Shown one piece after another: positions 14,673 to 17,062 of a DNA stretch of 64,000 nucleotides. The translations under genes were made by a program, and so were the position numbers. The stretch is from the IMG/VR virus record IMGVR_UViG_3300029305_011445, one strand, 5' to 3'. Position 1 is the first letter of the stretch, and the number at the start of each line of letters is the position of its first letter. The stretch comes from a virus (Duplodnaviria; Heunggongvirae; Uroviricota; Caudoviricetes). The notes beneath the pieces were generated by a model, which made no database searches, was not told where the DNA came from, and saw only the letters and a list, made by a program, of their open reading frames with translations.

Positions 14673-14684
14673 AATAAATATGGG
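14673..14684 (-). promoter_or_regulatory. consensus promoter motif
   Basis: CCCATATTTATT upstream of 14160..14597. Confidence 0.55.
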
Positions 14685-14735: not shown

Positions 14736-16937
14736 TTAATTTTCTCTACTTGCGTAAAATGCTCGACGCAATGTGCAAATGTCATCAAGTTCAAGCTGAC
14801 CACTTGTTTCGTTACGATCTTTCATCCATGCGTAAAATTCCTGTGCAAGCGGAATGTCTAATGACACAGATTTCCCGATACAACCATTTTTGAATACCTG
14901 CTCTGATACTTTTCGCATCTGTTTCCAGAAGTTATAGTAATGAAGCTTTACTTTCACCATAAACCCTGTCGCATCTTCTAATACAAATCCTTCAATCTTT
15001 CGACCGTTAAGTTCATAATCCGGATGCATTACTTCTTTGTACCATTTACGGAACTCTGTCCAACTATTGATTTCAATGGCTTTTTCTTTTGGTGTTAACC
15101 CGAAACGATGTGCTACTGCCACCATATCGTTGTATTCATATTTCTTGAATTCCATCTCATTTGATACGATATCAAGTAAGATAAGCTTGCTTTCTGGATA
15201 TTCAATGATATGCGGATCATGTTCCATATCAACGCATTCAAAAACAAATGTTACATCATTTTCTTTGATGAATGATTTCATTGCTTCAAGTGTATCTGCA
15301 GCAACAGTTTTATGTAACATCTCTCTTACCCATCCGGCATAATCGCCTTCAACTGTTGATTTACTTGCAATAAGTAAGTTGTCACCATATTCATCGTAAC
15401 TAACCATGCCTAAGAATCCATTTTCTTTTACGTAACCAATTAATGGATACTGTAAATTCTTTTCTAACGAACTGAATAATGTTTCAGGACGTTCGTTAAC
15501 ATTAAAGAATTTTTCAAACGAGCGCATGCATACCTTGTTTCTAAAAGTGTCAATGAACAAACCTCTTGCTTTACAAGTCTGTTCGTTCCAAACTTTACCG
15601 TAAAATGCTTTTGATGTAAAATTGAATGATGAAATATTGCCAAACTGTTTCTCCTGTACATATGGATTATTACGTAACATAGTGACAAGTTCTTCAATTG
15701 TTTCAGGAACTTTATCTGTCACAATCTTTTCCTGTTTTGGTTCCACTTTTTTGAATACAGTATTTTTTGTTTCAAATGTATGAATACCATCAGAATCAAC
15801 CTGTACACATCTTAAATTGCCACCAAATTCAACTTCATTTTCCAGGTTGTACATACGTTCATTTGCCTGTACTGGAACACCAGTGATATTTCTATGTCCA
15901 TGAATCTGAGTGACAATACATGGGGCTGTTTCTAAGAATGTTTTCGCCACCTTGTCATAATCACTGTAGCGGCCAACACCATGGATCATCTGATCTGTTG
16001 AAATAAGTGTTAAGTTATCCGGTAATGTGCCCAAACCAGCATGTGTTACAAGGAAATATTTGTTTCCATAATGGTAATATGCACACTGTGCAAGTTTGCG
16101 ATAAAACTGTCTCAAGGTCTTTTTGCTAACACCTGCTTCAAGAAGCTGTGGTTTTGTGTTATTTTCAAACTCTTTTGATTTTGCTTCTTTATCATGTGCA
16201 AACAAATTGAGCCATCTTTCATGATTGCCTTCCAACAATAACACATTTTTACGATCCATGATTGTAAACAAGAATTCTAACACTGCTGCATTTTCAATGC
16301 CGCGATCAATGTAATCGCCAGTAAAAATGTAATATTCATCATCCTTGATGCCACCATTTGCGGCTAAATATTCCTGCAGCACAGAATGACATCCATGTAC
16401 ATCTCCAATATGATGAATCTTTTTGTAATGAGACAAATCAATTGGTTTCATCCAAATCGTATCAAGTTCATCCGGTGCAATGACTTTGATACCGGATGGT
16501 ACCTTTTCCGTTTTGAATCGTTCATACATTCTGTCGATTGCATAGTCTGGTACACGTTTTAACTCTTCTCTGAATACATTTCTACGTTTCACTTCTTCAA
16601 TTGGAAGCGTAGTAAAGTCGACAAGATAAATTCTGTAACGATAATCCTGACACAACTGTTTATATCGTGTTAATTCGGATGTTTTAGAATTTGTTGCATC
16701 AATTACTGTAAATGCACCTTTTTTCATACGGAATTCCAGCATTGAAAAAAGTGTTTCCCATGCAATATCAGAAACTCCCTGATCAATACCCATTGTGCCA
16801 TCGAGTTGCATCATTGGACTATTATACATAAGTCTCAATGTATCAGCACATAATGTATATGGTTCTAATCCATGTTCTTTGATCCAAGTGCTCTTGCCAC
16901 ATCCAGGTGCGCCTCGTAAAATTAATAATGTTCTCAT
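14736..16937 (-). CDS. Pnkp-like polynucleotide kinase-phosphatase-ligase (RNA/DNA end-healing and sealing)
   Basis: N-terminal P-loop GAPGCGKST kinase; central calcineurin-like phosphoesterase motifs GDVHG, GDYIDRG, GNHE; C-terminal adenylyltransferase-like domain with KENG (KxDG-like) motif, as in Clostridium thermocellum Pnkp. Confidence 0.8.
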   Translation of the reverse strand: MRTLLILRGAPGCGKSTWIKEHGLEPYTLCADTLRLMYNSPMMQLDGTMGIDQGVSDIAWETLFSMLEFRMKKGAFTVIDATNSKTSELTRYKQLCQDYRYRIYLVDFTTLPIEEVKRRNVFREELKRVPDYAIDRMYERFKTEKVPSGIKVIAPDELDTIWMKPIDLSHYKKIHHIGDVHGCHSVLQEYLAANGGIKDDEYYIFTGDYIDRGIENAAVLEFLFTIMDRKNVLLLEGNHERWLNLFAHDKEAKSKEFENNTKPQLLEAGVSKKTLRQFYRKLAQCAYYHYGNKYFLVTHAGLGTLPDNLTLISTDQMIHGVGRYSDYDKVAKTFLETAPCIVTQIHGHRNITGVPVQANERMYNLENEVEFGGNLRCVQVDSDGIHTFETKNTVFKKVEPKQEKIVTDKVPETIEELVTMLRNNPYVQEKQFGNISSFNFTSKAFYGKVWNEQTCKARGLFIDTFRNKVCMRSFEKFFNVNERPETLFSSLEKNLQYPLIGYVKENGFLGMVSYDEYGDNLLIASKSTVEGDYAGWVREMLHKTVAADTLEAMKSFIKENDVTFVFECVDMEHDPHIIEYPESKLILLDIVSNEMEFKKYEYNDMVAVAHRFGLTPKEKAIEINSWTEFRKWYKEVMHPDYELNGRKIEGFVLEDATGFMVKVKLHYYNFWKQMRKVSEQVFKNGCIGKSVSLDIPLAQEFYAWMKDRNETSGQLELDDICTLRRAFYASREN

Positions 16938-16978
16938 AATTGTTCTCTCCTTTTTTTTATAATCATTTTTCGATACAG

Positions 16979-16990
16979 AATAAATATGGG
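16979..16990 (-). promoter_or_regulatory. consensus promoter motif
   Basis: CCCATATTTATT upstream of Pnkp gene. Confidence 0.55.
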
Positions 16991-17062
16991 ATGTAAATAT
17001 AGAAACAAAAAAGCTTACACAAATTGCGCAAGCTTTTGGTGTTAAAATTCCGATTTCAAAGG

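Follow-up and report, generated by a model that had tools for sequence, protein, structure and literature searches.

A gene for a kinase-phosphatase-ligase fusion

The window analysed here, a stretch of 64,000 nucleotides from a virus of the Caudoviricetes, contains a gene for a protein in which a predicted polynucleotide kinase, a metallophosphatase and an RNA ligase are joined (Table 1). A hairpin with a T-run lies on both sides of the gene and a promoter-like box precedes its start codon, which supports the view in the preliminary description that the gene forms an insulated transcription unit. The next copy of the box (14673-14683) is located beyond the 3' hairpin. There are 28 exact copies of the box in the window where 0.19 would be expected, and all of them lie on the strand of the local genes with an RBS and a start codon downstream. 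The insulated layout is thus not special to the fusion gene, because the element as a whole is organised in this way.

Table 1. Coordinates of the fusion gene, its flanking signals and the predicted domains of its product
Feature	Coordinates	Strand	Basis or diagnostic residues
CDS of the 733-aa kinase-phosphatase-ligase fusion	14736..16937	minus	ORF list; ATG start; stop 14736-14738 within coordinates
RBS GGAGAG	16945..16950	minus	7 nt 5' of ATG, read from sequence
Element-specific promoter-like box CCATATTTATT	16979..16989	minus	42 nt 5' of ATG
Terminator-like hairpin and T-run, end of upstream small-ORF unit	17009..17037	minus	Terminator scan; dG -16.3 kcal/mol, z -5.0
Terminator-like hairpin and T-run directly past stop codon	14696..14731	minus	Fold dG -19.7 kcal/mol, z -6.5
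Residues 1-160, P-loop polynucleotide 5'-OH kinase, Pnkp type	16458..16937	minus	K15, D32, R35, lid R119/R123/R128
Residues 165-399, binuclear metallophosphoesterase	15741..16445	minus	D179, H181, D208, R212, N238, H239, H299, H346/H348
Residues 400-407, flexible linker between healing and sealing halves	15717..15740	minus	Sole model segment with pLDDT <50
Residues 408-665, RNA ligase adenylyltransferase core	14943..15716	minus	R458, EKFFN 475-479, K504 nucleophile (KENG), K526, E567, H576, E649, K662/K664
Residues 666-733, helical C-terminal ligase module, Rnl6 (Trl1-LIG) C-domain homologue	14739..14942	minus	K672, R675 (Trl1 Arg334, Arg337), invariant R724

Mobile-element genes in the window include those for ParA/ParB, a Mob_Pre relaxase and the element's own sigma factors, and the promoter box is repeated throughout. 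The carrier is probably a large plasmid or phage-plasmid whose host is a Lachnospiraceae-like gut Clostridium. Its backbone is, as judged by sequence, without a close sequenced relative; megablast returned nothing, either for the locus among phages or for 24 kb among plasmids, and PHROG scans of unannotated neighbours and large unknown ORFs were uninformative. PADLOC gave no match for the fusion protein and only generic helicase-type matches elsewhere (UvrD-like and PIN-PhoH genes). No neighbouring gene of the window accompanies the family gene at the 110 homologous loci that we compared, so the local context adds nothing to the functional assignment.

Domains and catalytic residues

The tripartite ORF described earlier is real, and every motif that had been named is found in the sequence: the P-loop (G9-APGCGKS), GDVHG (178), GDYIDRG (207), GNHE (237) and KENG (504). 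The last of these supplies the nucleotidyltransferase lysine motif, with K504, on which the assignment of a ligase depends. Further motifs are THAG (298), HGH (346), EGFV (649) and KVK (662). The domain search that had been suggested identified Pfam AAA_33 at residues 4-142 (E=2e-17), Metallophos at 173-355 (E=9e-15) and RNA_lig_T4_1 at 456-668 (E=9e-44), all with scores well over the cut-offs and far beyond chance.

An AlphaFold2 model with 59 diverse family representatives as input has a mean pLDDT of 93.1. A first model, for which the input was 36 near-identical homologs, reached only 59.7 and was discarded. The 26 catalytic positions that we checked are identical across 29 distinct family sequences (38-100% identity), with H346F as the single exception. 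Among 59 representatives (37-63% identity) the core residues likewise do not vary, including those of the ligase, which were aligned one by one to T4 Rnl1 and Trl1-LIG.

The preliminary description stated that the protein matches bacterial Pnkp, and this is correct for the two healing domains. In the AlphaFold2 model both the kinase and the phosphatase have Clostridium thermocellum Pnkp (CthPnkp) as their best structural match. The N-terminal CthPnk-type P-loop 5'-OH kinase of bacterial Pnkp is present in the fusion protein, as is the central binuclear metallophosphoesterase with GDxHG, GDxxDRG, GNH[ED] and downstream His residues. T4-type Pnkp, in contrast, uses a DxDxT (HAD) 3'-phosphatase where the fusion protein has a calcineurin-like metallophosphoesterase. 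The match to bacterial Pnkp does not extend to the sealing domain.

A ligase of the Trl1 and Rnl1 lineage

Bacterial Pnkp ends in an Rnl4-type ligase, to which the ligase of the fusion protein has no detectable similarity. By sequence profile and high-confidence model, the ligase domain instead matches the fungal tRNA ligase domain Trl1-LIG (Rnl6), and the predicted match runs through the C-domain that defines the clade. Identity to Trl1-LIG (PDB 6N0T, 6N67, 8RBJ, 9QW7) is just 21-23%; however, both have an Rnl6-type helical C-terminal domain after the adenylyltransferase core. The two proteins are otherwise built differently. In Trl1 the ligase is N-terminal and is followed by a GTP-dependent KIN domain and a 2H cyclic phosphodiesterase, whereas in the fusion protein the order is kinase, metallophosphatase and C-terminal ligase. 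The healing domains of Trl1 are unrelated to those of the fusion protein, which has no 2H domain. Moreover, Trl1 is a tRNA splicing enzyme, while the fusion protein belongs to a bacterial mobile element and has no role in tRNA splicing.

The core is also shared with T4 Rnl1. Residues R54, K75/F77, K99, K119, E159, E227 and K240/K242 of the T4 enzyme correspond to R458, EKFFN, K504, K526, E567, E649 and K662/K664, and the Rnl1-type N-terminal sub-module and motifs I, III, IV and V are all present. However, T4 Rnl1 aligns over the core only, and its C-terminal domain, which confers tRNA specificity, is missing from the fusion protein.

A widespread phage family

The architecture is not unusual: it is that of a large catalogued phage family, PHROG 8238, which residues 1-730 match over profile positions 1-732 of 737 (E=2e-228). 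Split versions of the fusion are catalogued too: PHROG 21952, a stand-alone ligase, is matched by the ligase half (E=4e-59), and PHROG 246, a kinase-phosphatase, by the healing half (E=8e-29). The protein has 37-64% identity to other sampled members of PHROG 8238 and differs from them in nothing essential. It is therefore an ordinary member of a known family that is biochemically uncharacterised: in the literature accessible to us we found no activity measurement for it or for any relative, and no biochemical study.

Homologs number more than 5,000, and the best 120 of them all have AAA_33, Metallophos and RNA_lig_T4_1. At 50% identity, 1,060 clusters match at E<=1e-30. Full-length matches in phage genomes number 113 and include SPbeta-like, Twort-like/Sep1-like and Alicyclobacillus phages; the family is also found in prophages and Lachnospiraceae elements. 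In one widespread lineage the fusion gene directly follows genes for RlaP and the CCA-adding tRNA nucleotidyltransferase. Within 10 kb of the family gene, RlaP is encoded at 7 of 110 loci and the CCA-adding enzyme at 5 of 110. An intron or intein of 1 kb was suspected at two loci (L021 and L022), but the extra match proved to be a separate second metallophosphatase gene downstream, and there is no insertion.

Proposed role in RNA repair

As judged by homology, the protein is likely to be a self-contained, trifunctional enzyme that heals and seals RNA, carried as cargo by a mobile element and probably serving to restore tRNAs cut by ribotoxins. The N-terminal Pnkp-type kinase would phosphorylate the 5'-OH end left by RNA breakage, and the Mn-dependent metallophosphoesterase in the centre, also of the Pnkp type, would open the 2',3'-cyclic phosphate. 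The C-terminal ATP-dependent ligase would then join the ends by way of K504-AMP and an AppRNA intermediate. A ligase of the Trl1-LIG/Rnl1 lineage is expected to be self-sufficient, and we propose that no Hen1 activator is needed because such a ligase works alone. The substrates may be tRNAs or other translation RNAs cleaved by anticodon nucleases or ribotoxins of host defence or of rival elements.

The model for this role is the T4 Pnkp/Rnl1 paradigm, in which the same logic of kinase, 3'-end phosphatase and ATP-dependent RNA ligase is directed against an anticodon nuclease, although T4 uses two polypeptides where the fusion protein is one. In vitro, broken tRNA is repaired when the CthPnkp healing module is combined with a ligase of the Rnl1 family (PMC1920235). 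Because CthPnkp also acts on DNA ends (PMC1920235), we infer the substrate class mainly from the ligase family. The window contains no tRNA genes, recognisable anticodon nuclease, RlaP or CCA-adding gene, so the link to tRNA repair rests on a minority of relatives.

A possible 2'-phosphate junction

The repair reaction may follow the route known from yeast, a tentative refinement that we consider appreciably less probable than the general proposal above. The phosphoesterase would yield an end with 3'-OH and 2'-PO4, and the Trl1-like ligase, preferring such ends, would leave a 2'-PO4 at the junction. This phosphate could be cleared later by host Tpt1/KptA or by the phosphatase domain, or could serve as a transient shield against recutting. 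Besides the alignment of the ligase to Trl1-LIG through the Rnl6 C-domain, the residues that confer the 2'-phosphate preference of Trl1 point to this route. Trl1 Asn150, His227, Arg334 and Arg337 align with N506, H576, K672 and R675 of the fusion protein. Across 59 representatives the His of the triad is present in all, the first Arg position is Lys in 56 and Arg in 3, and the second Arg is retained in 58. In Trl1 the triad enforces the 2'-PO4 requirement (PMC11404444), and it is absent from T4 Rnl1, which does not ligate 2'-P ends (PMC12440814). However, the first Arg of the triad is Lys in the fusion protein, and the triad predicts 2'-P dependence imperfectly, because plant Trl1 lacks both arginines and still needs 2'-P, and Chaetomium thermophilum Trl1 has a preference for 2'-P rather than a strict requirement (PMC12440814).

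The healing half bears on this route in both directions. The first product of CthPnkp is a 2'-phosphomonoester, with 90% of the cyclic phosphate opened and 16% released as Pi, and the H189D mutant is a cyclic phosphodiesterase only (PMC1920235). At the equivalent position, His181, 11 of 59 family members naturally have Gln, but the protein of the window retains the His. In addition, wild-type CthPnkp partners T4 Rnl1 and not Trl1-LIG (PMC1920235).

A 2'-PO4 that persisted in the anticodon loop would be expected to compromise the tRNA (PMC6097658). With KptA of E. coli and of phiCD211 as probes, Tpt1 was found neither in the window nor at the 110 family loci. This result weighs against the yeast-type route, and against removal of the 2'-PO4 by a phage-encoded enzyme. 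The Tpt1 genes that phages do carry belong mainly to other phage groups, and no ligase lies next to kptA of phiCD211. A PARP-like gene 2.7 kb downstream of the fusion gene was considered as a Tpt1 substitute. This is speculation: the gene has its own promoter, is syntenic in no relative, and belongs to the PARP and not the KptA family.

Alternative functions and the absence of Hen1

A function in the clean-up and joining of DNA breaks, for replication or repair of the element, is improbable. CthPnkp can phosphorylate and dephosphorylate DNA ends (PMC1920235), UvrD-like and RecJ-like genes lie near the fusion gene in the window, and relatives adjoin phage genes for replication and nucleotide metabolism (PolIII alpha, RNR, ThyX, dUTPase). 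However, such adjacency is weak evidence because large phages mix these genes in their early regions. The sealing domain, moreover, is of the RNA-specific Rnl1/Rnl6 lineage and has no match among DNA ligase families, and in some relatives the neighbouring genes are the tRNA-repair genes for RlaP and the CCA-adding enzyme.

The preliminary description noted that no methyltransferase gene is nearby. This is confirmed: none of 50 ORFs of the window that were scanned has a methyltransferase Pfam match, and a tblastn scan with a genuine Hen1, as had been proposed, found nothing in the window, in which the fusion gene is at least 14.7 kb from either edge. The same probe detected no Hen1 at the 110 homologous loci; locus L008, where the Hen1 gene overlaps the Pnkp start, was the source of the probe and served as positive control. 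The missing Hen1 is not an anomaly. The Rnl4 ligase of Pnkp is Hen1-dependent, with an active site that stays closed until the Hen1 N-domain opens it (PMC4411300). Since this dependence is a property of Rnl4 and the ligase of the fusion protein is assigned to the Trl1/Rnl1 lineage, the absence of Hen1 is expected.

It is accordingly very doubtful that the protein is a bona fide bacterial Pnkp, with an Rnl4-type ligase, whose Hen1 partner has been lost or now lies elsewhere. The domain order is identical to that of Pnkp, the healing domains are structurally nearest CthPnkp, and the bacterial Pnkp model TIGR04075 gives a weak match, although its 73 bits, over model positions 9-323 of 851, are one tenth of the curated equivalog cut-off of 750 bits. 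For the ligase domain, however, this origin is already refuted. Pnkp-Hen1 is also a chromosomal two-gene operon, whereas the fusion family is borne by phages and mobile elements. The Pnkp1-Rnl-Hen1 complex of Capnocytophaga gingivalis shows that bacterial healing and sealing modules recombine naturally, but that system has a separate Pnkp-type ligase and a T4-Pnkp-like healing enzyme and requires Hen1 (PMC4411300), none of which applies to the fusion protein.

A signalling function as a protein Ser/Thr phosphatase or kinase is just as remote: the phosphatase domain matches lambda phosphatase and PP1/PP2A/PP5 by sequence and some GenBank phage records read 'putative serine/threonine protein phosphatase', but the motifs are common to the whole PPP/ApaH/Pnkp superfamily, in structure the domain is closest to the Pnkp RNA phosphoesterase, and the same polypeptide contains a polynucleotide kinase and an RNA ligase with all catalytic residues intact.

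Implications

A protein composed of kinase, metallophosphatase and ligase is not automatically a Pnkp, and annotation should take this into account. The family is among the commonest RNA-repair modules in Firmicutes phages, with members in SPbeta-like phages, Twort-like staphylococcal phages and gut Lachnospiraceae elements. Defence systems that cleave tRNA are now recognised as widespread, and the family is therefore a plausible general counter-defence gene.

To our knowledge, RNA with an internal 2'-phosphate is the only known RNA substrate of Tpt1/KptA. If ligation by the fusion protein does leave a 2'-PO4 at the junction, it would be the first known prokaryotic route to such RNA and would supply the missing substrate of orphan bacterial Tpt1/KptA enzymes. 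The 2'-PO4 might for a time block recutting of the repaired site, as Hen1 methylation does, and the eukaryotic Trl1 ligase module and the phage module would be of recent common origin. Whether bacteria or viruses make RNA with an internal 2'-phosphate is a long-standing question, and the Trl1-like pocket makes it testable with one recombinant protein.

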